Source: Yuukianura sp. NJ FZ-2021
Lineage: Eukaryota
Reading direction: 5' to 3'
Assembly: GCA_046563655.1 (NCBI GenBank)
Contig: CM102283.1
Coordinates: 4,712,001-4,776,000 of the forward strand
DNA length: 64,000 nt
Shown: positions 6,536 to 53,770 of the stretch, piece after piece
Numbering within the stretch: position 1 is the stretch's first letter
How the letters are laid out: every line of letters starts with the position of its first letter
The notes under the pieces: generated by a model
What the model was told of the DNA's origin: nothing
Database searches by the model: none
The model's input: only the letters and a program-made list of their open reading frames with translations
Program-made: the position numbers and the translations under genes

Positions 6536-7899
<1,364 letters not shown>

Positions 7900-19271: not shown

Positions 19272-19443
19272 CCATACCTCCCCCTCCTTTCGTCAACAAT
19301 ACTCATAACTTCACCATACAACAAAACAACCATTAAATATAATAAAAACTCTAATATTAGAATCTTCCAAACCTCAAAATCTTGGTTCAGTAAAACTTTT
19401 AAATTTAACAGGCTCTAATTCAACCCTATGAGCTCCTGGGAAA

Positions 19444-20112
19444 ATGGATCCAATCCTTCCTCCCAGACTCACCCTCTGGCACAAGAACACCCAACCGGAA
19501 GATACGGTCGCAATTGACTGCGAATTCGTCTTTCTAAAGTCCGGATCTGGAAGCTCTAGAGTTAAATGTGCTACAGTTGACATTGTCGATCATAAAAGTA
19601 TCGCTATTTATAGTGCAAAAATTTACCACCCTAAAAACTCTTATAAAGTTAATTATCACACAAAAAAAGTTAATGGCTTCCGAACTGACTCGTTTGACAA
19701 TCCATCCTTCAAAACTCTCGATTTAGTTACCTCCGAAGTACGTTCACTTTTGGAATCAAAAACCTTAGTAGGGTTAGCGTTAAAAGGCGATCTAAACTCC
19801 TTATCTTTGCAACTCTCGGAATTCAAAACTATTGAACTTCAGGAGACATTTTTTCGTTACAAAAGAAACAAAAATGGGGAGCCCCAACTAACAAATAAGG
19901 GAGAATTCATACCTGAACCTATGGGATTTTCTACAATCCACGAAAAACTTTTTGGGGAACCACTTTACTCCTCCGACTCTACTCACTCGTCGTTGAAAGA
20001 CGCGCAAGCAACAATGCGTATCTTCCAACACTATTTTTACCCGGAAAATTCCACGGGGCCCAAGTCCGCTGCCTGTTTACTCTCTGCTACTCTTGATTCT
20101 CTTCACCTCTGA
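19444..20112 (+). CDS. Intronless DEDDh 3'-5' exonuclease, REX4/ISG20-like
   Basis: ExoI AIDCEFV, ExoII LVGLALKGDL, ExoIII HSSLKDAQATMRIF; all D-E-D-H-D positions present. Confidence 0.8.
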   Translation: MDPILPPRLTLWHKNTQPEDTVAIDCEFVFLKSGSGSSRVKCATVDIVDHKSIAIYSAKIYHPKNSYKVNYHTKKVNGFRTDSFDNPSFKTLDLVTSEVRSLLESKTLVGLALKGDLNSLSLQLSEFKTIELQETFFRYKRNKNGEPQLTNKGEFIPEPMGFSTIHEKLFGEPLYSSDSTHSSLKDAQATMRIFQHYFYPENSTGPKSAACLLSATLDSLHL

Positions 20113-20177
20113 ACTGCATGATTAACAGGTCTAGCCATCACATCAAACTCTAAAATACTCTCTTCTACTTTAACAGG

Positions 20178-22453
20178 ATGAATAGAAAAATTCCAAGCCA
20201 GTTTGACCCTAACCTAATGGCCAACTTAAACGGCGAATTAAGTTATCGCGCTTGGTGTCAAGAAATACGACGCCAATGCCATCGCGTTGTCCCCCCATTG
20301 GACTTCAGCACTGTACATCAGAGTGAACGTATTCGGGCTTACGAAATTTACCTGGAGGCCATCCGAACGGGATCAGAGGCAATTCCAACAGGCTGCCTTG
20401 TTTCACCCCACACCTCCCCCCATAACACACTCCCCAAACAGCACCGCTCCGTTGACACCGCCCAGGCCACTCCTCCCGTATAACTGGGGATCGTCGAACC
20501 CCGAAGAAGCTCTTCAAAATCGACGACAGGAACAGATCCAACGAGATGTGCCGAACCCTCATTTTCGCACAATCGAACCTTCCCGTTCCAATTACCATGC
20601 CACATCGGACCGCGCTCCGGACCGAACCCGGACGAAGCACACTTCGGACAGATTCGAACCCCGAACATCCGACCAGCAAAATCCTCCCGACCCAGCCCAC
20701 CAACGTCACTCCGCGTTACAACCAACTCAACCACATACTTCGAATAGAGATCGCCCTGACCGCGAAAAGAACCGACCCTATTCGGACCAACGAACGGGCA
20801 GGGACCGGTCCAGCCCTGTCTCGAATCATGCAGAACACCCCTATGGTTCTAACCGTTCCCGCCAATATTATAATACATCCCACTCCACTCCCCACCACCG
20901 GTCCGACCAGGACCGCTCTAATGCCCACTCGTGGCAACCCCGCAATACTCGCCAAACCCCAAACCGGGAACCTAATAGAAACCGATCGGATGATCACAAT
21001 AAGAAGAAATCGCGTGTCCCTGCCGAAATACTTGAACGTGCAGCCAAGCACAATGCCGAACAGTTTAGAAAAGGATTCAAACCTCCTACGACGAACTTGC
21101 CGGAACCGGACCTTCCGGACAGATTTCCCCGATACGACCCAACTCGGCCGATTGTGGACCGTGGCTATGGCCTTACCACAAAAAGTTATCCAACCGTCCG
21201 AAACGAGAACCGCAACAACCGGCCACAACCCACTCCAACCATCCAAAGCACGAACCCAGATTTCCCTCACAACTGGGTAGACGACGACGAAGTGGTCGTC
21301 TTGGCAACCACAAATAACACTCCACCACCCCCTTGCTCCACCCAGCCACCACGCAACTTCCCACCCCCATCAGCCACAATCACCTCCGCCACGGTTACGA
21401 CGACAGAAGGAGCGCCTCAACCACACTCTCCACTGACTCCACAACACAACGTTTCTCAGAACCAATCCATTCCGAACCACACTATCCAAGACCTTTGTGC
21501 TGTACTCGACAAACTCCGCCACAAGATGGCCCATGCCACTAATCCGTCCTCTGCCGCCTACCAAGCTCATCCAACCAATCAACCAGTGCCCGAAACGACA
21601 ACCATAACGTCCGAACAAATCAGTACGCCACTAAAAGAAGTCATCCTTAAATTGAACCGAGTTCAGCCAACCAGCATCCCAACCCACCAACCGGACGGAG
21701 AATCATCATCATCATCCTCTTCATCTTCTAACAATCTCACTACTCCAAAAACTTTTAAAATTCCTCGTCTTTCCCGGGATCCAACCAAACAAATTAGACG
21801 ACCAAGAACAGATTCCGAATCCCCTTCCAGCGAGCGAAAATCCGACAATACCCAAAATAAAAGGGCGAAGTCATCTTATCCGTCTAAGCAAGCTCGTCAT
21901 AAGTCACTGCCCGCCTCCCGACCAAGCTCTTCTCAATCTCCGGCGAGCTACAAGGGCCACGCCTCAACTTTGAAGAAAAGGACTCGCGTCCTTTTCCTCC
22001 GGGTCAGTCTTCTGGCTTCGGTTGGTAACGGTAGATCTTGCTTGGTTCCAAAACCTTGTATTCATCTTTCTCTTCCGAATTACAATAAAAGTTAAAGTAC
22101 AGTATCACTAGATTGTGTGTGATCCACCATTCTCTTCAGTTACGTCCTTTGTTTGAGTATTAGAGACGGATCGAACTTTACACAGTTTGAGTGACAGTCC
22201 AATCGTCTTAGTTTCAAGGTGTCTACGTTTTCTTCTCCTCGCTTCATCCACTCTCTCTCTCTCTCCCTACCCATCAAGGAAAGTTAAGGACCTCACTCGT
22301 TCTTCCAAGGCGCAAGACAGATATCCAGACAAGCCCGTGACCGGAGTCCCGCCAGACAAGGACCACGCTCATCTGCTCGACTCATCGACTAGGAAGGAAG
22401 CGTCCCACCCACGGAAGTACTCCCGCGATCATCAACCTCCCATCGACAGGTAA
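20178..22453 (+). pseudogene. Long low-complexity (Pro/Ser/Thr/Arg-rich) ORF set, possibly frameshifted or spliced
   Basis: Overlapping ORFs 20178-20483 and 20287-22095; acceptor TTTAACAG at 20177; strong C-rich/G-poor strand skew; no domain recognised. Confidence 0.35.
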
Positions 22454-23959
22454 GCTCGGAAATCTTTAGTTATTTTCTTATCAACATTTTCTCTTTTCTC
22501 TCTCTTTCTCCAACTATGGAGCTCTCCCTCGCCACCCTCTTCTCTGTTTCTATCTCTGTCACAAGCATCGTCATTCACAGCTGACCCTGACCGGGGTCAT
22601 AGGCAAGTCAGGTCCCTCAACAAACGAAAACCTACAAGGTGCTAAGGCGGGGTCATTGACCCCGTCAGGGCAGCCACCGTGACCAAGCGGTGGTGGCACC
22701 AGTCCAATCCCCTCATCACCCCGCCATGACTTTTGGTGGGTAGTTTCCAAGCCCCTGGTGGGACCTCGCCATGGTCTTTAGTGGGGCCCACTACTCGGGA
22801 GGACGCCTTCGGGTGAGACTCCCGAGAGTTAGGTTGTTTTATTTTGGAAGGTTTGTTTTGGTGTATCGTGGGACCCTCCCACCCGTTCCTCGGGTGGGAC
22901 GCCTTCGGGTGAGACCACCATGTAGTTGGTTCGTATCATGTCGCCCCCTTCCCCAAAACGCCATTGTCGTTTTGAATCTTCCCCAAAACGCCATTGTCGT
23001 TTTGAATAAAATTAAATTGTGAGGTGATAGAATGGTGAAATCAAATAAAGTGTTAATAATAAAATAGTAAAATACTAAAATGATTAATAAAATGGTGTTA
23101 GTACTAGTATCGAATTTCAAAAAGAAAAATGTCCATGCATAATTGTGTGTGTCTGATTTTATGGGAATCATTGTGTATGTGTGTGTGTGTGTTTTTCTTG
23201 AACCACTTCATGGAGTAAAACCGTCATCTAGTGTCGAGGTAATGGAAGGAGGGAAGATTTTCAGAATGGAAAGTATTTAACATTGAGGGTATGGATCACG
23301 TCAATGTGAAATAGGAGACTCAGATACCCTACTTGAGTGGAAATCCATTTCGCTTTCATCGCAGGTACTTGGTGAGGTGGCGCTTGTGTTCTATCATATT
23401 CGCAATTGTTTCTGTAAAGTCTACTTTGTATTCAAGTTGTAAATATATTTGCACGTTAGTAATATTAATTACCATAATGCAAGATCACGATTACTGTGCC
23501 ACTGGGAAAACAACTACAACTGTTGTGTATGGAGGATCTAAGAAGAGGAGGTTGGATTGTAATGGTAAGTAAACTAAACTTGTTAGATAACTTAACCACC
23601 TTTTTTATAAACAAACAAATTCTGTTTTAGCTTTGTTTATGGTCAGGTTAAGTTAACCTAATCTAACCCTGCCTAGACTACGCTTAAAATTTTATAACAG
23701 TTGAGGCACTTTATGACCGGGGTAAACTACAGACTAATTAATTTTTTAGCAAGATGATGAAGTCATCTCTATGGCCTTGTTTGGTCTCATACGTTGGTCA
23801 GCAAAAAGAAGATTTTGATGCAGTTTGTTTATGTTTGATATATTTAGTTCAATTACATTCCCAATTAAATTAATTTTCTCTTTGTGAAATTTTTCAAATA
23901 ACGCAAATTTGCTCATCTCGCCCTGAATGGGGCAAACTCTTTCGAAACTATGATTACTT

Positions 23960-24470
23960 TTATTTACCAATATTCGCAAATGTGACAATTTTCTTTATTC
24001 GTTTTCGAACACTGTAGTTTTGTACACCGTCTCCAAATATTTCGTTTTTGGTTCCTCCTCGCTTGTTGAGACGTATGACTTCTTTGCTACCTTGCAGTGT
24101 CGTTTGTCTTCCTCTTGTGTTTTCTTCAATGTTTTGGCACAAGAGTAGGGAGATATAGGGTACAGTCCCAGAATATCTTGGTCGTAGTACCGGTGTCCTT
24201 ATTTGTCAGGAACATTCGGTGGCTTACAGAGTCGTGTACAATTTTCATGTGTGGCAGTTTCCAGACGTCTCCGCCGTGCTGCATGTAGATTTGGAAGAAG
24301 TTTCCCATAAGCTTGGGTATCTCTTCGTTGCCAACGTCAACGGCCGTTCCTTTGTGCCTCTGAATACGGACCACTTTGTTTCCGTCGTATTCGCGAAAGA
24401 AACAGAACAACCATCTGTTGTCTATACCTGAAGTACTAGTTGCCTCCTCAATGATTTTTCTTTTCAAATC
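23960..24470 (-). pseudogene. Unknown ORF (MDLKRKIIEE...), possibly a Maverick accessory gene
   Basis: Protein-like 169-aa ORF upstream of, and divergent from, the Maverick integrase; family not recognised. Confidence 0.3.
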
Positions 24471-24798
24471 CATTTTTCTTTTCACAGTCGCTACTTTAAA
24501 AATCTGATATAACAGAGACCAGAGTCGACGGCGGTACTGCTGCGTCAGTTTCCAGAGACAGACTACTCGAATGAATCGTTGATGGTACAGGAGAAGCTGT
24601 AATATACAAACTAAAAACCTCATCCAATTCCCCACTCCCGCTCATGGGGCCTCACAGGAAGCCCCACTGGAGGGAGTGGAGAAATGGAGGAGGTTTTTAG
24701 TTTGTATATTACAGCTTCTCCTGTATTTGTTTTGCGCTACAATAGACAAAAAATGGTTCATCGTTTCTCTTCTTCTTACTTGTGTTTAAAAATAAATA

Positions 24799-25652
24799 CA
24801 GGGTTGGTAGAGGATAGGGTTAACCGTTCCGGAGGCTTTTTGAAAAAAACAAACTTTTTGAGCTGGCTGACTTCAATCAGCTAACTGAATCTGTTGCTAA
24901 GACGATTTTGAATTTTGAATTTCAATGTACAGAGCGGATCTTCACAAGCGATGAATTATTACGAAATGAACTTAAGTAAGTCGGAGCATATTTGTGAAAT
25001 CGACAATTTGCGTTTCCCCTTAATTTTTTTGATTCGAATGAAAATTTGCGGGATGGTAGTTCCTTACGGGATAGCTCGAACTCCCCTGGTCATTTGACAT
25101 TTGACCTCCCCGGTCAAAGGTCAAAGCCAAAATAAATTCTAAACTTCGCATAAACTGCGCACAAACTGTGCACAAACTGTGCATAAACTGCGCACAAACT
25201 GCGCATAAACTGCGCATAAACTGCGCATAAACTGCGCACAAACTGCGCACAAACTGCGCATAAACTGCGCACAAACTGCGCACAAACTGCGCATAAACTG
25301 CGCACAAACTGCGCTCAGACCTTTTTGAAATTACCAATTCTTTTGTAAATTCTGTTCCGAATCAGCTTATCAAGCCATTTCCAACAAAATATTAACTTGC
25401 ATTGGGCTGTCTGTCATAAGTTCACTCGGTGACCTCAGAGTTTTCAGTTTTCAAAATGTTGTTCAAACACTTACTTTTAATTGTAGCAAATTAATCCTCA
25501 AGGACTTTAAGAAACGCACTGTACAAAAAATTAATTTATTTAAAATTGTTTCTACGACAAACAAAGCTGGTTGAAAAAATTCAACCAGCTCAAAAAGTTT
25601 GTTTTTTTCAAAAAGCCTCCGGAACGGTTAACCCTATCCTCCACCAACCCTG
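24799..25652. mobile_element. hAT-type MITE with internal minisatellite
   Basis: ~68-bp near-perfect TIRs CAGGGTTGGT(A/G)GAGGATAGGGTTAACCG...; exact 8-bp TSD AATAAATA (24791-24798, 25653-25660). Confidence 0.9.
25147..25314. repeat. 11-bp tandem repeat GCGCA(C/T)AAACT, ~15 copies
   Basis: Directly visible; explains the repetitive ORFs 25020-25337 and 25114-25305. Confidence 0.95.
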
Positions 25653-25823
25653 AATAAATATAAATTCCTAGCAAAAAAGAAGAAACTTCCAGGGAAAATA
25701 TTATAACTTTAAGTTTCTTGCCAATATGAACAGAAAATTTCTCTAAACTTGAACTTTAAAATTAAATTTTAAAAGCTTCCGGGTTCAATATTCTTTTGGC
25801 AGTGAAAGTGTTCAGGTGTAAAA

Positions 25824-26856
25824 ATGGGAAAAACCAGAGCGTCTCAGCTGAAAAAAGACTATACGACTCAAAAAAAGGTGGGTTTTTCTGGCTTGCCTAC
25901 GTTTCTACGGGCGACGGGTCGCAAAAACGATAAAAGGACAGGGGAGGAACTGCAAAGTATTCCGAGTTATAGCCTGTTTCGTAACGTGAGACAAAAGTTT
26001 CCTGTGCGCACGACGATTGTGCCTACGCTGCACTTTAGCTATGGAGCAGATTTAATGTCGATGCAGAATGTATCACACCTAAACAAGGGAGTACAGTATG
26101 CACTGATTGCTACCGCGTTAATCGATTCAAAAAATCAGTATGACGTGGAGGCGGGACTAAAGAACTGTTTCAAGGCCACGGGCCACTTTCCAAAATTCTT
26201 GCTGGTTGACGAGGTTTGTTCAGTTTAAATTTTGCCACCTTTTTCCATTCCAAGGTTCGTTGTTACAGTATAACAAAATTTGCACAATTGCAGGGAAAGG
26301 AGTTTTACAAGTCGACCGTCAAGGCTTTTTTTAAAGAAGAATGGAGTGATGCTCTATAGCGTTCACTCCAAGCAAAAGTGTAGCATATGTGAACGTATAA
26401 TTCAAACGCTAAGGCTAAAACTTAGTTGAATTGCACATTATTTCAAAACTCCTGGAGAATTTTTGTATGCTTGGGAAATTGTTGTTGCAAACTACAACCA
26501 CAGTTATCACAGCACAATTAAGGTGATTTATTTTTTTCAGAATTACCAGTTTGAAGCATTTCGAGAAGAATCGGGATACATTTACTAGTCTATTTTAGAT
26601 GGCTCCGGTCAAAGTAACCGAGAAAAATTCTGATGTCGTCTTTCTTCACATTTATGGGAAAATCATTACTGCCAAGAAACCAAAACCGCAGTATAAAGTA
26701 GGCACGCTGGTTAGAATCTCAGAGAATCGCTTGACCTTTACAAAATCGTCGGCCAATCAGCTTTGGACTACAGAAATTTTCAAAATTGTTGAAGTCAATG
26801 TTTCCAACGTTCCCTACTACTTCTTGTCTGCACTCGACGGAGAGAGGATCGAAGGT
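25824..26856 (+). pseudogene. Maverick/Polinton retroviral-like (rve) integrase with two introns; frameshift and stop in exon 2
   Basis: YSLFRNVRQKFP, ADLM, VDE|GKEFY, CERIIQTL, YNHSYHSTIK|MAP, YKVGTLVRIS, WTTEIFKI, LDGERIEG; introns 26214-26293 and 26523-26598; +1 shift near 26330; TGA near 26427. Confidence 0.85.
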
Positions 26857-27174
26857 AAAGGCTCCAGTTGTGCCCTTGGAAACGGAATCTCCAGAGACGA
26901 CTTTCTTCAAGGAAACAGTTTGTTTTTGTTTGAGCTAAACGACTCCAACTTGGATGGCCAGCTTATGCCACAGCGAAAGGGAATAATTCAGGCGAGTATT
27001 TTTGTGTAAAAAAAAATGTCAAAAGAAAGTGTAATAAAACTCGTGTAATTATCATTGTAGGTGGATTTGCAATTTAAAAAGACTACCACTTCCGCACTTC
27101 AACTCCTCACCGTCGGAAGGTTTACAAACATTCTCAAGGTCCACAAGCATAGCCAATTGGAGCTTATGCAATGA
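26857..27174 (+). pseudogene. Maverick/Polinton major capsid protein C-terminal fragment, fused in frame to the integrase
   Basis: GNGISRDDFLQGNSLFLFEL...KGIIQ|VDLQFKK..LLTVGRFTNILKV resembles the Polinton capsid C-terminus as recalled; putative GC-AG intron 26992-27060. Confidence 0.65.
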
Positions 27175-28606
27175 GCGGGGAAGGAATGTCCATCCGAATC
27201 ACCAGCAGCATGTTTGAAGCTGTTCTCCTGGAGATGAACAGATGCCCGGAACTGAAACTAAAGTGCCCTTATAGGGAGCCGGTCAACATCTCCGTTGTGG
27301 CTCGAGACGAAATGAAAATGGCCAAAACATCAGTGCCATTTGTAGTTATTCAAAATTCAGAATCGTCTGAAAGTCCTGGGAAATAGAGGTGAGCGCCCGA
27401 CCGGGATTCCCGGAAATACTCCCGAAGTTTCGGGATTCCCATGGTCTCGGGGCGGGCGGGCGGTGCAGTTTGGTTTTTCGGGCGGGAACGGGCGCGGGAG
27501 GCCACAGGCATGAGCGGGAATCGGGCGCCCGAAATAGCCCGAAGTGCAAAAATACACGCTAAAATCAAAGAGTAAAATAATTTTTCCAGATCTGCATCGC
27601 CACTTTCCACGTGTGGAACTCTTAAAGCCCCCTAAAACCCGGTTGAACTGAGTTTTCCAAACTTAAAAGACAACTTATCTTTTATTCAATTCAATTCAAT
27701 TTATTCTCCCACTCAGTGCGCAGGTTTTTCAGAATAAAATCTTTACAAAATCATAAAATTATTACGCTGCTAAATTAACTCTTATCGGTGATGGTTATGA
27801 AAAATACTGTGTACTAGTTTAAAATTTAAAGTTACTGGTTTTCAGGTGTAATTGTTATGATATATTGAGTTGTAAATGTTATGAGGTACGAGAATGTAAG
27901 TTGTTTGTTTTCAAATTATCTAAAAGTATAAAATTATTGTTTATCATTGTTTATTGTTTATATTAAAGTAATTTATCAAAAGAATTAACGTTTATCCACT
28001 GCAATATTAAATAACATCTAGCTATTGATATGAGTATTAATTTAGTAAAAAAGTAAGTTCCGCAAATTACAATAAAACCATAAAAGTTGGTTATGCGTCA
28101 TTTTATGTTTCGGGCATCGGGAATTTTCGGGCGCCCGATGGGCGGTCGGGATTTTTTTTTCACTTGACCATCGGGCGCGGGCGCGGTCGGGCGAAAATCA
28201 GAGCGGGCGTGGTCCGGGCGGGTATTAAAAATATGAGCGGGCGCTCACCTCTGCTGGGAAACACTGGTTTGCATGGATCATGCGCTCTCCCCGTAGGCTA
28301 GTTTTCTTTGACTCTTTTGGGAACCCCCCTTCACATTACGGACTCCGCCCCCCAAACGAAATTAGAATTTGGAAGAGAAATAAAATTCAACTTCAGCCAA
28401 ACATGAGCCAAAAGTGTGGCTACTATAACTTGTTTGTAGTTGATGTAATGTTACATGGAAAATCTTTTGAAAGTGTCCTGAAAATGTTTGATTGGAAAAA
28501 TTTGTGCAAAAATGAAAATCTGATTTTACAGTTCAAAAAAAGGCTTTCTGTACCACGCTTGGTCAGGACGAGGTCAGACCAGTCTGAGCAAAGCAATTGT
28601 AGTTGA
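27171..28606 (+). pseudogene. Maverick adenain-type cysteine protease interrupted by a hAT MITE
   Basis: Removing the MITE and one TSD copy gives ..QNSESSESPGKHWFAW..VFFDSFG..QLQPNMSQKCGYY (His/Asp/Gln/Cys motifs). Confidence 0.85.
27384..28253. mobile_element. hAT-type MITE with GC-rich subterminal repeats
   Basis: TIR TAGAGGTGAGCGCCCG / CGGGCGCTCACCTCTG; exact 8-bp TSD CTGGGAAA (27376-27383, 28254-28261). Confidence 0.92.
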
Positions 28607-28887
28607 AAGTTAATTGGCCGTGTCAAATTATCACCATAATGTAACATTAGGGTTTTGTAATCTGCCCCTTGTTAAGCCGGTCCCTTGGTGTCCCTATCCT
28701 TTTGTTGAAATAAAAAACAAACAAAACCCAAAACGGGCTGATTGTACATCACTGAAGGAACTGGTTTTATTTCGTCACTTTTTTCGGAGTTTGGTCCTCT
28801 GGAGCTTCCGACTATCTTTAATTTTCGTTTGAATCTCGGACTGTATAGACGTCTGATTTTCAGTTGTTGGAATTTCTTTGGTTTAAA

Positions 28888-29464
28888 ATGACCGTCTACC
28901 ATCAAAAGATTCATTCCGAAATTAAGAGATTGGAAGAGGAAAACGAGAGCCTATGGAAGCGGCTCGCCGAAGCATCGGTGCGTGCGGATACAAGGGAACG
29001 CAGCTTTCGCCAGCAGGAAGCGGCGCTAATTTCACTGCAGTCTCAGGTTCTCCAGGCAAACGCGGACAAGGTTGCCTTGGAGATTTACGCACAGAGATGC
29101 CAAGCTGTAAACGCAGCAACAACCGGTGAGTTTTTTTCCTACCCTAAATTTTTATTTTAGTGTTATTTATCTCTATGCTAACGTTCATTTGATTTTGTAA
29201 ATTTTAGCAATCAATGTTCAGCAGCAAGCGGTGCTGGACAAGTTGATTCGAGACACAGAAGAAAGCCGAAAGCCCGTTTACACCATGGAGGTTCAACGAC
29301 TAGACCATGCGAAACCGTTGGAGGAAGCAGAGGAACGGATCAAACGGCTGGAATCCGATATTGTGGACCAGATACAAGAGGATCTGGGGAAAATTGAAGA
29401 ACGAGCAAAGAAGCCTCTCCAAAAGATTTTGTACCCCAATGTGGAAATCATCTCCCACGTATAA
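28888..29464 (+). CDS. Two-exon coiled-coil protein, probable Maverick accessory gene
   Basis: Heptad-rich E/K/Q/L ORFs joined by a GTGAGT...TTTTAG intron (~29126-29207). Confidence 0.5.
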
Positions 29465-29813
29465 CGTTTTCGTTTTGAAATTTTTCAAACCAATTTAGTT
29501 TCGACTACCAAATCTACACTCGGATTCCAACAACTGAGAGTCAAAAAATGTGCCATTTTATTTCAATTTCAACTTAAATTGACATTGGTGTTTATTTTGC
29601 AGTTAAATCCAAGGATTCTGCTGTTGAGACAGAGGCGTGGCCATCTATGTTTCATCCAAGGGAGGGCATTCGGCCGTGATTTCTCCGAGAATTTTGATGA
29701 GCGCCTCGAGTTCCTGACGACTCAACACAATTTTGGGACCTGGAGTCAATCAAAAGTCAAAAGTATTTTCTACCATTACGTGTCAGGAACTAGAGGGTGT
29801 CTATGACGTTCTG

Positions 29814-30514
29814 CTATGACGTATCAAAGTACCCAGGGTACATTGACCCTGTCACTGGATTATTCAAGTAAAACTGGTAACAGCGCCCAGCCAGGTGAGT
29901 CGTTCGCAAACCCAGTCGCCCAGAGTCCGCCATGTATATTCCACCATTGTTGTCTTTCCAAAATTCGGCAAATGATGGTTTCATAGGCATAGTCAGCTTG
30001 AAGACATAGTCTCCACTTCGAAGCCCGTCGTCAATCATTGGAAACAGCTGTCCTTTGACATACTCGGAAAAGTCGTCAACTTCCGAGAGCAAAATCTGGA
30101 TGATGCTGGCTTTGGCGCTGAAATTATCCTTTTTGACGTAAATTTTGAAAACTTATGGGCCAAAGAAAAAGTTAAAAATTACAAAATTTTACTTGATTTC
30201 GTGGTTTGAATATTTTTTACTTCGTTGGAATGATCAAATCCCAATCGAATGAGCAGTTTAGTAGTCAATGCAATCTTATGCACAAGTCCAAACTCCCCGA
30301 AAAATTCGTTTTGAGTATGAACAGTAAGCCCAAGAGCCCTAGACCTGGCCTTAGCCAGATAAGCCTTTTTTCCATCCGGATTTGGTCTCGTAAAGCTAAA
30401 AGCCGCCTTCTTCACGGGGGGCGGACCTTGAACTTCCGGGACAGCAACTGCGTCAGCCCCAATAGAGATGAGGTAATAGGCCCGTGCAGCAGCCTCCTTT
30501 GGGCGTCCATCTAA
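29814..30514 (-). pseudogene. Fragmented unknown gene
   Basis: Protein-like ORF pieces 29814-30092 and 30179-30415; family not recognised. Confidence 0.3.
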
Positions 30515-30929
30515 AGATTGATTTATTTAACGTATAAATTGTGCTAGAAAAAAGTATTTTTGATGACATAATTAATTACAATTATAGAGCTTCTCTGACG
30601 TCTTTGAGAGTGGCTTTGGCGCAATTGCTGGAACTAGTTGCTCTGGGACCTCTGTATTTTCTGTAATTCTGAATTTTAGCTAATTTCATCCATCCAATTA
30701 TCAGATTTAGCAATTTCAAGTGTTCCTGTGCATAAAGTGAAAGTGGCCTTAACCCCTGCAACACACAATGCCTACACTGTGTGCAAGTGGTAGTTACTGA
30801 TCTAAAATGTAAGTAAAAGTACAATCTACCCATTACCAACTGTACAAGTTATACAAAAGCCTTTTACAGTCTGATTCGCACGACGGTACGTAATTAGTCA
30901 CTTGTATGAAAAAAAATTTCTTTTAGTGG

Positions 30930-33929
30930 ACAGACCAAATGAATCCCGAAGAGCTTAGTGAAAGTGTACCCCCTATGAACACGGCGATGGAGGATTGCAA
31001 TTCCAGAGACGTGTTTGTTCGTTATGTGGCTGCTAGCCCGGAAGCATAGGACGCTAACTTACACGGAACTTCAAGTCAGATAAGTAACAACAGAAATACA
31101 GACTTTAGGAATGAATTTCCAGAGTCAATGACTGTTACCTACAATCCCCTCTGCGAGCCCGTCACTCCGAATGTTAACGATGAATCCCCCAACGACAGCA
31201 TACTATTAAGCGTCTCTAATACGCCGAATGCCCACCTACTGCTAAGTGCCTCTGAAACGAATGATGCTCTGGAAAATACCGTCCAAATAACTTTAACTGA
31301 AATATGTGACAATATTGTGTCTCCCGACCCCGTGTCACCTTACTACGCTTCCGTTAATTTATCTGATGATCCTGTATCCGTCACGGAGTTTGCTACTTTA
31401 AATGCTGTTGTTCTCGTAGGCGCTACCGATACTATAGTAAGACCGGCAGAGTCTCTCATCCCCGAAGTGTCCCACGCTACGGACATTGCGATTCACATGT
31501 TTACTCCTCTGTCCTCGAGTCACCGTCCATCGATTTCCCGCATGTTGGTTGGCAGTTTGAGATCTAAAATGGGCACTTCACGACGATCTACTCCGCGTCG
31601 GTCAAAACGTTCCAAACGGACAACAGTCCTTCCGATCTCAAACAAACCTACCACGGGAACTCAGCGCGGACGGAAGCGGAAGGCGCTTCGTATCTACTCG
31701 AGTTCCGACGAGTAAACGGAAAATGCCCCCGTTACTAATCTACTTTCCCCTTTGACGCCTAACTCTCCCGCCAGTGTTGCCTTGTCTCCAGTTCCAGAGA
31801 CTGTTCAGGTTCTGTCTAGCTCTCCCGTTCCAAGTGAAGGGTCCCGATGTTTCACCAAAGCCCAAAGAAAACAGTACCCCACAGGTAATGAGACCTCGAA
31901 CGTCCACGAGTCCACCCAAGCCGGGCCATCCCGCTCAACCCATGATATCCGTACATACTGATTGGCCTTGAAAGATTTACAACGCACCATCAACAACGTA
32001 GTGGGTATATGGCAACACGATAGACTGAAGTTAAAGCGTGGAAAAACCCCCTGGGATTATATGCCAGTTTTAAGCGACTGGCGTTTACAAGGACTGACTG
32101 TCGAGCTTGGGCAAACTTTTTTCAACAAATTAAAAACAACGTTCACCGCAAAAAACTGGAGAATTACAGTATGTCTTCAAATAGTAGCCTTGGTCGAAGT
32201 ACATGAGTGTTGAGAGTAATGTATGCTATTTTGTAGTTGCGGGATCCGAAAGTCATAGGCTTTTTCAAAGCCGCCATCGTCTCCAACTCCGAGCTCTACT
32301 TTTTCTTAAATTTACTATGCCATTGGTTCAGCGAGAAGTTCCCGAAGACGAAGGAGAAACGGAACCGTTTTGACATCATTGATGGTTTCAATGTAAGTTT
32401 TCTAAACGCCGAAGATGTAATTATTGCTATAATCCCAACTGGTATTTTTTAGTGGTTATTGAACGATGTTCTGATTGAGCGCGTTAGAATCGCTGAGTTG
32501 TGCTTTCAGGCGATCGCCTTAAAGATGCAGATTTTCTCTTGTCCGGTCGAGTTCCTGTACCCTGCCTTCGAATATCTTTCAGTGTTGGGGCCGATTTATC
32601 CAATGTTAACCTTACTAACCTCCGTCGAGGTACTAAAAAATTACTTCCGGAAGAAAATGGGATCCTCGAGTCTTAAAAGTCCTTTGTTTTTTGTAGGGTA
32701 TGGTGGATCCCATTGCTCAATATGCCGATAATCAAATCGCGAATTGTAATAAGCTAATTCCCGTCGGTGAAGAGCCTATGAGTGAAGCCAATGAAACACT
32801 TATTTAGTAATTAGAAGACCCGCGACTCAAACAATTGGTAGGTCGAAAAGAAATATATAAATAATATAATAATATATAAATAAATAAAGTATAATAAAAC
32901 ATCGCAGTGAGAAAAAAAATATGTTGTAAAGAGAGTATATCCTATTAGACCTGCTTGATGGCCATTGTACGGTTGATATCAGATGCGATATCAGATGAGA
33001 TATTAAATCCCAATTACACGTGTCGGCGCTTTTATGTGACCGGGTATACTTAATTGAGTGCCTTAATTTGGAGAAGCGATAGTTTTATTTGACTCCATTC
33101 CTAAATGATTTTTAACTGTTATAGCGGATGGATCATGGAGTGCAACAAAATGGTTAACTCAACTGCAATTGACAAGTTCGAGACTACCCTAAATGACGAA
33201 GGAGAGGGTTATGTGCGCAGCCGTTGGACTGATGCTAAAGGAAACTATGACACTCTAAGACTTCCCAAAGCAGAAACCCGTGCGTCTTTGATAGAAAACT
33301 TACAATATTCCACTAATGTCGTAAAAAAGTTATGATTTTCAGGGTATTTCCCCCAAGATTTACTGACGGATCCCGTAACCGAAGTTGGACTATTTCATTG
33401 TGGCTTATGTGTCGCCGAACTGACGGAATGACGGAAAACTACAGAATCCCAGTATTACTAGGGAACCCCTGAAGTACACCGCCGCCGAATTCGAAGATCA
33501 TGTAATTTCTCACGACGCAACAGAGCGAGTGGACCAACGGTGTGGCTATGAGCGTGCCTTTTGGGTCAGCTCTTCCGATGTTCACGCCCTAGCCTGCAGC
33601 TCCTGCGTTTGTTCTCAGCATGGTTTCACGGAAAGACGCCTCTATTTCCTCTTTAACGCAACCTAGGATTGAAAACCTCTAACTGTTGATCTTCGTTGTC
33701 TGAGAAGAAAAAGCATTTAACCACCGATAAGGAGAAGAAGCAACGCTTTGCCGGCTGTAACTACTGTAACAGCTGTGGCAGTAATATGAAAAACATAGAA
33801 GAATTTGAAAAACATAAGACTACCTTATGTCTATATTGTCGCCATTGTCTCATGCTTTTTCCTCACTTGAGCACAGCCGTGAACAGCATGTTAGTAAGTG
33901 TTTTCGTTTCTGCGACAATATCTATTTAA
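30930..33929 (+). pseudogene. Degenerate multi-exon gene with a low-complexity N-terminus and C-terminal CxxC clusters
   Basis: Co-oriented ORFs separated by GT-AG intron-like gaps; HCGLC, CNYCNSC and CLYCRHC motifs; stops and frameshifts. Confidence 0.4.
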
Positions 33930-34082
33930 CCAAACCCGAATGTCGCCTATGTGCCAATAACTGTTTAAAACAGAATATTTATTTTACCCCTGCGGTGCAA
34001 AGAAAAAGAAAGCAATAAACAACCATTTTGCTAGGTATATGATGACTCGAACTTGCCTTCATTTCTGAAAAAAAAATAGTAG

Positions 34083-34576
34083 AATCCGGTTCGAATAGGA
34101 CCATATATGTGGGGATCCCGGTCCCAGGTGTCTCCTCACACGCCGATGTCGACGCGTGGAGAGTATCGTCTTCCTGCACACCGAACGGCCTGGCTCAGTG
34201 ACTCACGGCACGCTGGACAATAACACGCACGACAATTCCTCCGAATAGGCCAACCCAATGATCTTTATTCACCACAACCAAACCCTCGATCACAGGTAGG
34301 ACTCTCAACTATACTACACCGTAATGCTACTCGAGTAGTCTTCCTCGGAGAGAGATCCTCACTGGAGGACCTCTACCCGAGTGCTGTCCTCCATTTCCCG
34401 GTCTCCGCATATCCTCTCCTAACTCGACAGAGGAAATGCCGACACCCAATCCGGTGAGAGGTCTCTTATCCCCGTAAGAGACCCTCACACATATTCCTAT
34501 CCTGTGAGGCATATTTTTTTATGACGGAAGTCTCGATTCGTCAATCCCTGTTGCAGAAGTACCCATAACCGCCACA
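34083..34576 (-). mobile_element. LTR (34108-34576) with adjacent primer-binding site
   Basis: TGTGG...CCACA ends, minus-strand AATAAA, followed on the minus strand by TGGTCCTATTCGAACCGGAT; purine run GAGGGAA precedes it. Confidence 0.6.
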
Positions 34577-34994
34577 TTCCCTCGTTTATCGTATCATTGA
34601 GCACGTTTCCCTTGATCGTAGAATACTCAAAGACATGCATTATAAATAGAACCTAAATTTAAAGGAGTTATACAGATTAAGGATGAATACTAAGGCTGTT
34701 GTGTGTAAATAAAGCTATGTGGTACCTCCAAATTATTCTTATTGCGTCTCTTATCTGTTATTTTGGTTATTTTGATAGGTATCCATGCGTCCACCTTTAA
34801 TGGAAAATCTTTCCGAGTTTGCAGTTATCCTGAGGTGCAAATTTTGAGGTAGGGAATACACCAATTTCCCGGATTTCAAACAACATAAACTCGACTTTCA
34901 CCGCCATCTTTTGCCCTCGTCATTTCTACGTAAGATTAAACTACCTATTGGTTGTCTGACGAGTTAATTATAGTAACCTATCAAATAGCGTTCT

Positions 34995-37900
34995 ATGGCA
35001 GGTGCACTATCCTATGCCGTAAAAAACGTGATCATGGTTGACGCAATGGCTCAGACGGATGAGTCTCCGATGACAATGGATTCTACCTCCAGTGTGTCTG
35101 ACGCTGGAACTACACCCTCTACTGCGACACCCTTGGATTTGGCTTTAGAAGACATATTGCCGGATGAAGATTTTAGCGACGATGAAGTTGTATATTTGGG
35201 TCATTTTCCTGCCTTACGAACAGCTAGTGCCTATACACGAGTCTGTCTTAGTGACGAAAGTTCAATGGATATTTATGCCTCAGACGAAAGTCTAGATAAC
35301 TAAATAAAGAGGTCATCCGCCTTCTGGAAACCTTGGGACATGGCTGTGAAAAGTTGATACAGAAAATTTATTTCTTCATCTAATGGAAGTAGGCTTGTTG
35401 TGTAAAGTACGTTTACTTAGAATTTTTGAAAAAGAACTTTTAGGTTAGTAGCAACCAAGCTATTGATCCTGATTATTCACTGTGCATTGCTTCGAGGAGA
35501 AGACCCTTTTTGTTGCTGATAACGCGTAGTTCTGCTTTTTTCCGCCAGACTAGCGTGACCGAGACCCCTTGCATGCACACCGAACTTGTGGTGCAAGCCT
35601 GGGTCCAAGTAATAATTTTTACGTACGAATTGCTGTAAAGCGAATGTTGCAGAAAGTTTTGAACATGAAAACCGTGTGGAAATAAATGAACCGTCAAATC
35701 CTTTGATAAATTCATTTTGTAGTTACTGACATAATAGAAAGTATCGTTATTAGCAAAATTTGAAAACAGAGTATCCCCCCTCAGCTGTTACTGCTCTGCC
35801 AGCCTATAGCCTTACTTCTCCTGGATGGATATACTTTCGCCTTGAATTTGACGTCATTCGCGAGGCGTGAGTCTATCGACAGAAGAGTATAGGGAAGCGT
35901 GTGTGCTATTCCGTGGTACAAAAACGGAATCTGCCACCTATGAACTACTGGCCCAGAATTTTGCGGTTGGCTTCTCACTTCCTAGACTTTTTCAATTTCA
36001 AGTTAAATGTTCTACTATTGACGGTTGCTTTTTACACTTTACACATACCAATGCCAATTTGTAGTGTGCGACATACGCTGATTGCATAAAGTTCTCATCA
36101 TGAATCCTACACAGGTGAGGGTATACTTGGATAATTATATAAAATTCTCAATGAACTAATGTATATTGTTTATGATCTGTTATTTGAGTAATCATAGAAC
36201 GCCAGGGCTTGCAGTGGATTTACTGGAGAACTACACAGCGAAGCCTTAAGAATTAGAGAGGCATTAGAAACTGCCACTATCCTTGCTATTACCTCAGAAA
36301 ATACAAGAAGTGTCTAAACGACAATGTCAGCATCTAATCAGGAAAGCAATAATCTAGAACCAAGAATATCAAGATCGCCTAAGTACATCAATGTCCACTG
36401 AATCAGTTATGGATGACAGTGCTACTGGAGCCTCGGCTATCGATGATGTCCCCGAGGCCACCTTGGATACTCATGTAATTACTTTTCCCTCTGAGCCTCC
36501 TACTGGTACTGTGGACGTACTAACTCAACTTAGCATCACATGTCGTCAAATTTTTCAAAACTGCGATTTCAAGAAAATCCGTCCAAAATGGCGGGGCAAA
36601 GCATGTTACGCGTATGAAAACTGTCTAGCGCAAGGATTTACTCCTGGCGTTCTGTTCTTAACAATTATTGCATGTTTATTGCATTTTGTGACGCCTTAAA
36701 ATTGGCTGCGTGTGGTAAGTAACCCAGATACTGGGTGGCTTTATTTATAGCATTAGGATTTGAATTGGTTTGTTTTGGTCTTTGTTTAGTTTACTGGTTC
36801 CGTTACCATGTTGTCTGCTATTTGTAATGGTGATTCAACGACGGGATATTCCCTAGTGGAAATAATGATTTTGTGGTCATTTACATCCTGTGCGGAAAGC
36901 CATTCCTCACGTCTTGCCATGATCATTCAGGTATAGTCCTGTATTTGGCATGATAAGTCTGAAATGTAACTGGTACTGTTGTGTTTTGGTAGTTTGTGTT
37001 GGATTTTAAGTTCCTGACCCGTGGGAACATTTACTCATGGTACATGGCTACAGTTGCTAGTACGCAAAACATTTCCTTATTCACCGGAAATCCCCAGGTT
37101 AATCAAAATATACCGTATTTGGATATTCTGGGATCGCAATTAGCACTATTCGACTCTTTTGCTCCATTTGTAATTATTTTTGAAATTACTGACTAGGCGA
37201 GAACTATTACCTTATGAATGTTAATACGATGTCAACAGAATAGCTCTGACACCATCCGAGACCGATCTGCGCGTATTGAGGATGGGATTCCTAATGCTTC
37301 CTCTATTTGGAAAAACGCGGTAGCATATTGCGTAGATGGCCGCTTGGCTCAAGACGTAAGTACCATTATGCCCCATATTTCTCTAAATTGCTAATCCTAG
37401 TCTGCACTGTTATCGTTATTACAGTATCTTCATGAAAATAATCCATGCACCGTGTGGGGTCTACTGCGACTGGCAGCGAGCCCCTTCTACTCACAACTGT
37501 ATTAGTTTATGATCTATGTTTTATAATTGTAATCCTACCTCTTATCATAGGATGTCTTAAATATGCTAAATGGTGTTCGTCTAGGGAATGTCAATATACT
37601 ATAAATCAGGCTCCGGAACCCTTCAAAAAATTTCTTCGTCAGATCACGCGTAGTTCTACTCAACTGATGCTAAATCACGGGCAGGATTCACAAGCGACCT
37701 CAACAATTGCAGGGAATCATCCAGCTAATTATCCCTCATTACTCCCTTTTATAAAAACTTCGAATGTTGTAATTATTTGTTTATTCGTTGCAATTCCTTC
37801 GTTGTGTCTTCCAACTCGGAGATGGTCCAATAACTTTTTTGCCTGTCGTGAATTACACTCTAATTCACTCAAGCTAGGTTCATCATCTATCATAACCTTC

Positions 37901-43130: not shown

Positions 43131-46100
43131 TGAGGAAGGAGGAGTGTTCCTCGACACATGTACTCATACAGACACAGTCTTCATCTCATCTTCCATCTAT
43201 AGAGTCCTACTTTTAAATTCTCAATTTTAGTAACTTCCAATCAGTTAATTATTAATAATGTAAAGTTTTTTAAGTTTGATTACAAATAAATCATTTAGTC
43301 AATTATCAATAAGTGTCTAGAGTCTGGCATTCCATCCAACATTTTTCGACCTCCTCTGAATTAATGCATTATGAACATGCATTCATTCTTGGCACAAACG
43401 GTGGATTAGTTAGATTAAATGGATTGATTAATAATAAAATGGCACAAATTATAATAAATACTGGAAAATCAGTGACGTTGACGTTAGTTCATCCTAAGTT
43501 TGTTGAGGAGCACAGGCCTTTAAGATTTTCAATTTCTCTTTTTGGAATATGACCAACAAGAGTTGGTGTGAAAACTTGGTTACAAATTGGAGTAGGTTAG
43601 AAATTAAAGTTAATAATATAAACGTTTTTTTAACGCATATATTGTTCCTATTCTTGTGCTTGATTTATTATTGGGTTTGGACTGCTTTAAGTTTCAATAT
43701 ATTTCACTTCACATTTCAAAAGAATTAATTACTTGGCTTGGGAATGAGCTTCCAATTCAACCAATTCGTCTAAACGTTTTTTTAGAGAATAGTTTTAATA
43801 TGCATGAGATTCAGCGACAATTTTCTGACCAGAAAATTTTAGTTTGTCACTTAATCAATTTTGAAAAGACAAAAGCAATTAAACAAAGTTCAAAGAATAA
43901 AACAAATCAAACTGAAAGGGAACGCATGCAAGAAGATCGGATCAGTGCATCCAAGGAATTTATACACCCAAGCAAACAAATATTATTTAAAATGACAAGA
44001 AACGCAACCAAGAGGATCGGATCAGTGCATACAAGGGGTATAATAACCCAAAGCAAGAATTTTTCTTTTCAAAATAAATCAAATTGCAACAGGAAAATAA
44101 TCAAATCAAAATAAACAAAAATGATAGTAATGGCCATTTAGTTAAGTCTAGGTTAAGTGACGCATAATATTCAGATCTCTCGTGTTCTAAAGATCAGACA
44201 CGCCCAATGGATCCATTTGTACAATCTGTACATAAAGTAGTAATTCCGTCTATGTTATGTAAGCTAATTAAAGTTAAATTTAGTTGGCCAAATTAGTAAA
44301 TTAAATCAAATTGAAGTTAGTGAGGAACTGGTTCAATTGGGACTTTATATGCCCCCTGTTCAGTTGAGGAGCGGCTATTCTTTAGAATTCTTGCATTTTC
44401 CAATTTTAAATGTTTCCGAAGATGCGATTTTGATTCCTGCTGAATTAAAAATTGCAAATATTATTTGTTTGGAAAATTTGCCAGTCGAGGATAACGTTAT
44501 GAATTTAACTGAGGAAATTAATGACGTTACTGAGAAAATAAACGTTTTGTATGATGAAACTCATGTGAAGAAATTTTTTTGCTCAAATTTGAAACGCTGC
44601 AAGGTTAGGAAACTTGTTACGTAAGTACCAAGACGTGTTCGCAAAACCTGAAGAAATTGGAAATATTACATGTTATCAACATAAAATTACGTTGTTAGAA
44701 AATTCTTCACCAGTAAAACGCTCCCCTTACCGCAAGGCACCTGATTTGGAAGAATTTGAGAGAAATAAAATAAAAGATTTACTGAATTTAGGAATTATAA
44801 CGTCCATCTCACTCTCCTTGGGGTTGTGGAGTAGAAATTGTTCGTAGAGGTCACAAAGACGGAGTTAAAACGGAACCGAGATTTTGCATCGATTATTGAA
44901 AAGTCAACAAGGTCACGGGGAAAGATGCACATCCATTACCTAACATCCAGTCTATTCTTGATTGGATTGCATCTAGTGCCAATAAGATTTCTACTTTGGA
45001 TGGCGGGAAAGGTTATTGGGCAATTTCTATGGCAGATGAAAGTATTCAACTTACTGCATTCATAAGTAAGTCAGTATAATTCGAATTTGTGCGACTATCG
45101 TTGGGACTATGTAATGATCCCGCCACTTATTCTCGCTGCTTAGCGATAATATTGATGGATTATTTGTGGACTTGGTTAATTAGTTATTTGGACGATATTA
45201 TTTTTAGTAATTTAACAATTGAACAGCATATTGAAGATCTGGAATTAGCATTTCAACGATTTCGCAAGTATGGACTAAAAAGAAGTGTGAAGAAGAGTCA
45301 TTTTTTGAAAGACAAGATTCGAATTTTGGGTTTTATAGTTTCAAAAAATGCCGTGGAAGTAGATCCGGAAAAAAGTAGAGCCATTTCCGAAATTAAAAAA
45401 CCATCAAATGTTAAAGAAATACAACAATTTTTAGGTACAGTCTGTTTCTTTCGAAGATTTATTTATAGATATTTTGATTTGGCCAAACCTTTGACTATGT
45501 TGCTCCTAAAAGATCAAAATTTTATATGGGAGGATGCACAAGATAAACCTTCTAATTCTCTAAAAAATGCTGTAGTTAATGCTCCTGTTCTTGTCATTAC
45601 GATTCAAATAAATCCATTGATGTCGCCACTGATAGTTCTGGATTTGGCGTTCTAGCGTCCTTACTTCAACCTGATAAAAATGAAAAGGAGAGACCCGTTG
45701 CTTTCTTTTCCCAAAGTCTCAATAAAACACAAGTTAAATATAATAAAACGTATCGAGAACATCTTGTTATTTTACAGGCTTTACAAGTTTTTCATCTGTA
45801 TATTGATTCCAATTTTTTTTACAATATATACAGATCATGAACCAATTTCCGAGTTAAATTTTGCTAAAAATGAATTCTTCTCGTTTAGCTAGATATGCTT
45901 TGATTTCACAGCAGTATGATTATAAAATTGTTTATCGAAAAGGCTGTTTTAACAAATTAGCGGATTGCTTGTCGCTGTTACCTCTTCCTGTTTCGTTTGA
46001 TGAAAAAGAATTGTTGACGATTGCTTCAGAATTATTGAAAAACTGGCCAAAAGGAGTGTAAAATCAAAATTTATTACTAAAAATAAAAAAATTTATAACA

Positions 46101-53618: not shown

Positions 53619-53770
53619 CTGAAAACATTTTCTTTAATTTAAATTTTCATTATATCTATGAAATGTTTTACCTAATGAAATCCCATCGAGTACCTAACCC
53701 AAGCTTTCACCGTTAAACTCTAGATAATTCGTATTACTATGTTTTTTTCTAAACCGTCGTAAACGCCATA

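Follow-up and report, generated by a model that had tools for sequence, protein, structure and literature searches.

A dead Maverick-type integrase–capsid–protease remnant with intron-like segments in its core genes in the genome of Yuukianura sp.

The 64,000-nucleotide stretch of Yuukianura sp. NJ FZ-2021 analysed here (GenBank assembly GCA_046563655.1, contig CM102283.1, positions 4,712,001 to 4,776,000 of the forward strand; hereafter the window, to which all positions refer) carries at 25824-28606 on the plus strand an rve integrase gene, the 3' end of a capsid gene and a putative adenain/Ulp1-like protease gene, all read from one strand within ~2.8 kb. This region is a dead, internally deleted remnant and not a working element, and this copy is itself without function. 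Short segments that have the form of spliceosomal introns interrupt its integrase and capsid genes. We propose, with a probability of roughly 0.58, that the region is what is left of a Maverick/Polinton-type module whose genes already held these introns before insertion and which decayed afterwards. Introns in core genes are unusual for elements of the Maverick type, and here they rest on one broken copy.

The identity of the integrase comes from its homologues, since the single pieces of the window are too short to give an rve match in the Pfam scan. A full HMMER search with the open reading frame (ORF) at 26599-27006 returned 271 proteins at E<=0.001 and, among the matches listed, the alignments cover its first ~100 residues. 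When 13 homologues were scanned against Pfam, rve was found in nine, all of them full-length (302-427 aa), and three of these nine also carried Chromo; the remaining four comprised one unrelated fibronectin protein and three proteins without an integrase-relevant family. Aligned by tblastn, 50 homologues of 280-450 aa matched the window at 25824-26522 and 26599-26856 only. A word-indexed homologue search with exon 1 among longer proteins found no homologues, and an atlas look-up gave a weak rve/Mollusca lead at most. A profile hidden Markov model (HMM) of 313 positions was read against the pieces themselves; it was built from 47 full-length relatives, and pieces were scored jointly with an X placed at every break. 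The five integrase pieces joined in this manner form one domain of 246 bits (E 9e-74) that spans profile positions 3-297 of 313. The gene is thus recognisable as a retrovirus-like DDE integrase of the rve type, though its first catalytic Asp is gone and its frame is broken.

Exon 1 of the integrase has lost ~8 profile positions (~96-104), including the first catalytic Asp, near 26100-26110. Exon 2 shifts frame by one base within or beside the T7 run at 26326-26332 and has an in-frame TGA at 26427-26429, and its pieces in frames 2 and 3 fall on profile positions 139-153 and ~150-181, followed by 191-213 past the stop. An alternative acceptor that would replace the frame change was considered and rejected, as the sequence holds no AG in the right register. 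The integrase of this copy is dead. The initial annotation mentioned none of these lesions, nor the large internal deletion after 26854 and the 870-bp element in the protease that are described below. As a separate observation, one relative of this integrase (P0109) has an odd architecture in which a Phospholip_A2_4 domain (parvovirus-type phospholipase A2-like, E 1.4e-9) precedes rve and Chromo.

The placement of the exons on the integrase profile defines the first two intron-like segments (Table 1). Exon 1 ends at profile position 138 and the GKEF motif that opens exon 2 starts at 139; the Lys of HSTIK, at the end of exon 2, is position 213, and the Met of MAP, at the start of exon 3, is position 214. 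Because the profile passes unbroken from 138 to 139 and from 213 to 214, segments 1 and 2 are pure insertions relative to the uninterrupted relatives, and canonical splice signals bound both of them.

The third segment lies in the capsid gene. The capsid region continues the frame of integrase exon 3 from ~26875 and encodes the end of another protein, which more than 20 F54H12.2-like proteins match in tblastn at their residues ~355-410. The family was reached through the relative P0117, a gene model from Holothuria in which an integrase end, a capsid protein and a protease are fused. Its middle part, used as query, gave 1155 matches, and the best 120 of these are mostly proteins of ~444 aa named "uncharacterized protein F54H12.2-like" from echinoderms, cnidarians and amphioxus; among the matches listed, UniRef gives two Porites entries the name capsid protein. 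A profile of 443 positions built from 108 family members places 26878-26991 at positions 366-404 and 27061-27153 at 405-435. Joined by X, the two pieces reach 29.9 bits (E 4e-8 for 3284 ORFs), whereas none of 2000 shuffles exceeds 5.9 bits and the pieces taken separately score 10.8 and 6.7 bits. The joined profile is unbroken at 404|405, and therefore the GC-AG segment is a seamless insertion too. An atlas look-up with the 45-aa capsid piece gave no match. The fold was taken from a family member, P0203, whose model (75 sequences in the alignment) has a mean predicted local distance difference test score (pLDDT) of 86 and a predicted template modelling score (pTM) of 0.87. This model matches double-jelly-roll major capsid proteins of grouper iridovirus, PBCV-1 and Sputnik at E ~1e-16 and of mavirus at ~3e-14; among predicted viral structures it matches a bracovirus-borne homologue (39% identity) along with MELD-virus, adintovirus and virophage proteins. 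Judged by that predicted fold, the fragment is the last ~70 residues of a double-jelly-roll major capsid protein of the F54H12.2-like family.

The four segments listed in Table 1, three in the remnant and one in the coiled-coil ORF downstream of it, agree in form. All four have canonical termini (GT-AG or GC-AG) at the exact exon junction, and an exonic AG directly precedes three of them. Their GC content is 0.24-0.34, compared with 0.37-0.52 in the adjoining coding pieces. Removal of segments 1-3 makes the frame collinear with the uninterrupted homologues at integrase 138|139 and 213|214 and capsid 404|405, and in local HMMs built from homologues not one profile position is lost or duplicated at these three junctions. 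No target-site duplication was found at the segment junctions. The yardstick for host introns was the set of five GT-AG introns predicted from sequence in a cyclin-dependent kinase (CDK)-like gene of the host at ~6537-7896 (+) in the same window, the exon pieces of which fall in order on the Pfam Pkinase profile (11-61, 108-149, 159-205 and 222-263). These introns measure 123, 62, 71, 78 and 79 nt at GC 0.29-0.35, and the segments, at 69-82 nt, are of the same kind. With respect to origin, no copy of any of the four was found elsewhere in the window, nor any likeness between them, and an origin as introners was rejected on these two grounds. Taken together, the segments are very probably genuine spliceosomal introns. 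The initial annotation had described the integrase as split inside conserved motifs by phase-0 GT-AG introns of host-like size and had marked a putative GC-AG intron in the capsid fragment; all four interruptions are present where it placed them, and the size, phase and profile data agree with introns at the integrase and capsid sites. Its further claim, that the downstream coiled-coil gene is spliced, is only partly upheld: the GT-AG segment is there, in phase 1, but it has no support from homologues and the gene may not be part of the element.

A fifth candidate site is found where the integrase match stops. The last aligned codon is the Gly codon at 26854-26856, profile position 298, and the DNA there reads GAAG|GTAAAG. 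Relatives that run uninterrupted past Gly298 continue with FYxxEL and often with a chromodomain. About 13 of the 147 relatives instead leave the family pattern exactly after this Gly: nine of them stop 0-15 residues beyond it without the motif (P0040, P0014, P0094, P0009, P0096, P0072, P0018, P0001 and, less clearly, P0007), one goes on with unrelated residues (P0069), and three run into other capsid-module proteins (P0091, P0113 and P0117). The concentration of breaks at Gly298 is clear, and we infer from it a putative third integrase intron site in phase 1, of which the window would keep the donor end only. In the nearest relative, P0001 (62% identity), the ORF begins with the Met that follows segment 2 and departs from the pattern right after Gly298, which is to say that it corresponds exactly to exon 3. 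The Gly298 break that relatives share and the extent of this nearest relative therefore point to intron positions that were shared before insertion.

Just past the donor-like sequence lies the junction of a large internal deletion. What was removed after 26854 comprises the 3' end of the integrase gene, where the chromodomain lies, together with the minor capsid region and ~365 codons of the capsid gene, leaving ~365 of the ~443 capsid positions missing. The deletion extends from the putative integrase intron 3 into the capsid gene, and the integrase 3' exon and the intervening DNA must have been lost. According to the available text on vertebrate Mavericks, minor capsid and PW genes lie between integrase and major capsid (PMC8097293); here nothing of a minor (penton) capsid gene was found between the integrase and the capsid fragment, and that gene falls in the deletion. 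Among the relatives, P0065, P0113 and P0091 have an integrase that runs into another capsid-module protein.

The protease follows directly on the capsid, whose stop at 27172-27174 overlaps the protease ATG at 27171-27173 (ATGA). Its 3' part gives a Pfam Peptidase_C48 match at E 0.0043, below the curated cut-off, and a tblastn match with the Holothuria model P0152 at E 1.4e-6, the best among these models; the protease end of P0152 itself has a sub-threshold Peptidase_C5 (adenovirus protease) match at E 0.0031. In the alignment, conserved motifs with His, Asp, Gln and Cys follow one another in the right order. A word-indexed homologue search with the 3' half among proteins of near length found nothing, a PDB sequence search found nothing meaningful, and an AlphaFold model of this half from a five-row alignment was poor (pLDDT 58), with the African swine fever virus pS273R protease as its best Foldseek match at a non-significant E of 3.6. 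The gene is split by an 870-bp element that has perfect 15-nt terminal inverted repeats (TIRs; 27385-27399 and 28238-28252) and is flanked by the 8-bp direct repeat CTGGGAAA at 27376-27383 and 28254-28261. An 8-bp target duplication and ends of the TAG/CAG type are marks of hAT transposons, and we take the element to be a hAT-type miniature inverted-repeat transposable element (MITE). As an observation in its own right, four Holothuria leucospilota gene models of 678-862 aa (P0117, P0151, P0152 and P0157) join integrase, major capsid and protease in one protein. These models are most probably chimeras that gene finders produced across a Maverick module, and they illustrate how such elements are mis-annotated in animal genomes.

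How did a remnant of this structure arise? We hypothesize that an integrase - (minor capsid - PW) - major capsid - protease module of Maverick/Polinton type, adintovirus-like, would have been inserted into an animal-like nuclear genome with short introns. The parent would already have carried short spliceosomal introns in its integrase and capsid genes: no fewer than three in the integrase, located after 138, after 213 and within codon 298, and one in the capsid after 404. Expression of genes divided in this way would need nuclear transcription and the host spliceosome. After insertion, the capsid 3' end would have been brought up against integrase intron 3 by an internal deletion; the integrase would have gained its frame change and its stop and lost the stretch with the first catalytic Asp; and the hAT-like MITE would have entered the protease. 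The data support the assignment of the genes to a Maverick-type integrase/capsid/protease module. Among the hallmarks of Mavericks, the rve integrase, the double-jelly-roll capsid and the one-strand order integrase - capsid - protease are all present, and this order is that of module 2 in vertebrate Mavericks (PMC8097293). To judge from the light damage to the coding parts and, indirectly, from the positions at which relatives break, it is more likely than not that the segments were inherited from an intron-bearing parent lineage. A wider claim, that an invertebrate Maverick/adintovirus-like clade has conserved introns in its core genes (integrase 138|139, 213|214 and codon 298; capsid 404|405), is tentative, and we place it somewhat short of an even chance.

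Several observations weigh against a Maverick/Polinton parent that already had introns. The evidence comes from a single visible copy, and that copy is dead; splicing of its segments is predicted from the DNA. The class of the parent depends on one module, from which the minor capsid gene is also absent. No polymerase family was found in a Pfam scan of the 168 ORF pieces of the window and no polymerase-B motif in any window ORF, an absence that truncation may explain. An FtsK/HerA-type packaging ATPase is likewise absent, with no Pfam match among the same pieces and no Walker A motif in window ORFs of at least 12 aa. No inverted repeats bracket the genes in a scan of 20000-36000, where the 175-nt arms at 24768-25683 both lie upstream, and the long terminal inverted repeats with a 6-bp target duplication that are a further Maverick hallmark were not found. 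As the window lacks polymerase, ATPase and terminal repeats, the assignment of the parent to Maverick/Polinton proper is incomplete. The relatives add points of their own on this side. Many of them (for example P0008, P0014 and P0121) are uninterrupted across sites 1 and 2. The start at the exon-3 Met, seen in 29 of the 147 relatives, amounts to 29 of the 103 N-truncated ones against 12.5% expected from a model with one random break, a 2.3-fold excess that is weak and model-dependent; the expected share rises if breaks are dense, because this Met is conserved in 20 of the 47 full-length relatives. Nor does the trait form clusters on a tree (137 rows, 86 columns), where it takes 25 changes against a shuffled mean of 25.7, and as a clade trait the exon-3 Met start was rejected for its scatter. 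The bearing of all this on the initial annotation, which had called the region an intron-bearing Maverick/Polinton element, is mixed. The genes of the module and their order stand, but what is present is a dead, deleted remnant that lacks polymerase, ATPase, minor capsid gene and terminal repeats in the window; similarly, the intron-bearing lineage gains indirect support from the relatives that break at Gly298, but it is read from ORF ends only and its exon-3-start component is model-dependent and unclustered.

An alternative hypothesis takes the introns as genuine but has them arise in situ, in an old and perhaps domesticated copy that served as host genes and only recently became a pseudogene. 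The likeness of the segments to host introns in size, composition and splice signals is what this hypothesis predicts, as is an adjoining coiled-coil ORF that is intact and spliced in form, and it would agree with those parts of the literature available to us in which the core genes of active animal Mavericks are called intronless. Nevertheless, at least two separate genes would each have had to gain introns independently, and every one would then have had to decay. Over ~880 nt of coding sequence the integrase shows only a single frame change, a single stop and one small deletion, and the protease and capsid pieces are without point defects; gain of four or five introns in place is unlikely because coding parts this lightly damaged indicate a young relic. 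Moreover, the stop/start overlap between capsid and protease is still of the compact viral genome type, and relatives at 40-62% identity on unrelated contigs break at the same Gly298, the nearest of them being exactly exon 3. For these reasons, we consider gain in place unlikely, though it is the strongest of the competing explanations.

A second alternative questions the parent, which might not have been a strict Maverick/Polinton; it could have been another integrase-bearing element with a capsid, such as a polymerase-less Polinton-like virus or a transposon carrying a capsid module. The missing polymerase, ATPase and terminal repeats fit such a parent, and, in the portion of the source at hand, Ginger1 elements also combine an integrase with an Ulp1-type protease and have 1-4 introns (PMC2836005). 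Ginger elements are, however, without a capsid gene, and here a double-jelly-roll capsid stands between integrase and protease in the order of module 2. The capsid family has in addition a homologue in a bracovirus record. Mavericks occur in bracovirus proviral DNA. A parent outside the Mavericks is accordingly improbable. Least likely is that the segments are small insertions in a pseudogene with a GT or GC start and an AG end by chance, for although the copy is decaying (frame change, stop, deletions, MITE) and genewise-type tools call insertions in degraded Mavericks introns, according to the available text of PMC8097293, the true lesions of this copy (frame change, stop, small and large deletions, a transposon with its target duplication) look quite different from four or five segments of uniform size, AT-rich relative to their flanks, with canonical ends at junctions where the profiles continue, and chance insertions do not explain the latter.

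Table 1 Features of the remnant and of the adjoining coiled-coil ORF
Feature	Position	Strand	Description
Integrase exon 1	25824-26213	+	ATG to VDE, second catalytic Asp included; HMM 3-138, E 9e-22
Intron-like segment 1	26214-26293	+	80 nt; GAG|GTTTGT...TTGCAG|G; GT-AG; phase 0; GC 0.34; VDE / GKEF junction
Integrase exon 2	26294-26522	+	GKEF...HSTIK; catalytic Glu; frame change and in-frame TGA
Intron-like segment 2	26523-26598	+	76 nt; AAG|GTGATT...TTTTAG|A; GT-AG; phase 0; GC 0.30; HSTIK / MAP junction
Integrase exon 3	26599-26854	+	C-terminal barrel-like domain; ends in first base of Gly codon, profile 298; 101 bits, E 8e-30
Donor-like GTAAAG, then junction of large internal deletion	26855-26874	+	Phase 1; from sequence
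Capsid fragment	26875-26991	+	Profile 366-404 of 443; tblastn, HMM
Intron-like segment 3	26992-27060	+	69 nt; CAG|GCGAGT...TTGTAG|G; GC-AG; phase 0; GC 0.26; in-frame stops; in capsid fragment
Last capsid exon	27061-27174	+	Profile 405-435; stop TGA 27172-27174
Protease 5' part	27171-27383	+	ORF, 71 codons; aligns with protease end of Holothuria gene models
Non-autonomous TIR element, hAT-like	27384-28253		870 bp; TIRs and direct repeat; inserted in protease
Protease 3' part	28262-28606	+	His (HW), Asp (FFDSFG), Gln and Cys (QK-CG-Y); stop 28604-28606
Coiled-coil ORF	28888-29464	+	Exons 28888-29125 and 29208-29464; intact, spliced in form
Intron-like segment 4	29126-29207	+	82 nt; G|GTGAGT...TTTTAG|C; GT-AG; phase 1; in coiled-coil ORF

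Two genes follow the protease. The coiled-coil ORF has weak, sub-threshold Pfam coiled-coil matches only and no recognisable family, and it may not belong to the element. Beyond it, a convergent gene on the minus strand at 29814-30526, perhaps extending to 30848, consists of two ORF-sized exons around a GT-AG segment of ~90 nt at ~30130-30219; neither a Pfam family nor a PDB sequence match was found for it, and it could be part of the element or of the host. Vertebrate Mavericks have an opposite-strand module that begins past the protease.

The window as a whole, with GC near 0.40, is nuclear DNA of a eukaryote and contains ordinary host genes that have short introns. A host actin-related protein gene lies at 8603-10522 (+), and in this gene and the kinase gene introns measure 60-125 nt. 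Downstream of an exonuclease (RNase_T) exon at 19432-20112 (+) comes an open frame of 617 aa at 20242-22095; its complexity is very low, with an abundance of Pro, Thr, Ser, Asn and Arg, and it sits in the only GC-rich and strongly C-skewed stretch of the window (GC 0.52, GC skew -0.35). Mobile-element debris is represented by a reverse-transcriptase fragment at 45080-45655 (+) and a piggyBac-type transposase (DDE_Tnp_1_7) in three ORFs at 51629-53646 (-). Directly upstream of the integrase ATG is a foldback-like element (24768-25683), with inverted 175-nt arms at 24768-24942 and 25509-25683 that are 74% complementary and a centre of ~16 tandem copies of the 11-nt unit AAACTGCGCAC (25141-25314). 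A near-perfect 68-nt palindrome precedes it at 24586-24725, its arms (24586-24653 and 24658-24725) 88% complementary across a 4-nt spacer.

Some invertebrate Polinton entries in Repbase may be annotated with exons. The published descriptions agree with the statement of the initial annotation that Maverick core genes are usually regarded as uninterrupted. In the available text, the ORFs of intact vertebrate Mavericks are intronless, which is said to agree with Kapitonov & Jurka 2006 (PMC8097293), and the core genes of nematode Mavericks are intronless while their cargo genes have introns (bioRxiv 10.1101/2022.07.12.499685). Endogenous viruses of the Maverick/Polinton-like kind are said, in the portions at hand, to have no introns, and prokaryotic gene callers are deemed enough for them; on that ground, surveys of such elements commonly rely on ORF callers of the prokaryotic type (PMC10120064, PMC9356565). 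Full-text literature searches, whose coverage did not extend to the founding papers of Kapitonov & Jurka 2006 and Pritham et al. 2007, found no description of spliceosomal introns in animal Maverick core genes. If an intron-bearing lineage exists, surveys of Mavericks, Polinton-like viruses and endogenous double-stranded DNA viruses by ORF callers would split it into fragments or miss it, and databases would show exon-sized ORFs only, which would fit the many 'proteins' that start at the exon-3 Met or end after Gly298. It would also be direct evidence that Maverick integrase and capsid genes are expressed in the nucleus with the spliceosome. The value of the remnant is as a pointer towards intact relatives.

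An intron-bearing parent would be mechanistically unsurprising for a nuclear double-stranded DNA virus-like element. Adenoviruses and other nuclear viruses with such genomes would share with the proposed parent a double-jelly-roll capsid, an adenain protease and spliceosome-dependent nuclear expression; unlike the remnant, adenoviruses have no integrase, and their splicing mostly concerns leaders and alternative transcripts, not short phase-0 introns in conserved enzyme motifs. The comparisons that follow are drawn from the portions of each source that were available. Dinoflagellate Maverick-Polinton-like elements (Gozashti et al. 2025, PMC12166617 / PMC11957031) resemble the remnant as integrated elements that hold intron-forming sequences, but their introners are repeated transposon families, mostly acquired after integration, whereas the four segments described here share no similarity with one another or with other parts of the 64-kb window. 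Ginger1 (Bao, Kapitonov & Jurka 2010, PMC2836005) has a Gypsy-like integrase in which one of the introns is GC-AG, and in some members an Ulp1-type protease domain; that domain is part of the transposase, whereas the remnant has a separate protease gene downstream of its capsid gene. Nematode Mavericks (Widen et al., bioRxiv 10.1101/2022.07.12.499685) carry integrase, capsid and protease in invertebrate genomes and some of their genes have introns, with the difference that these lie in host-derived cargo genes and those of the remnant in core genes. The closest likeness in gene content is to module 2 of vertebrate Mavericks (Barreat & Katzourakis 2021, PMC8097293), which has the same kinds of genes in the same order on one strand, with an rve-type integrase (joined to a chromodomain in many relatives), a double-jelly-roll capsid and an adenain-like protease (putatively so in the remnant), and most genomic copies of which are also degraded. 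Compared with these elements, the remnant has lost minor capsid, PW and most of the capsid to deletion, and it lacks module 1 as well as terminal repeats; and where intact vertebrate Mavericks are intronless, its integrase and capsid genes carry intron-like segments of 69-80 nt.

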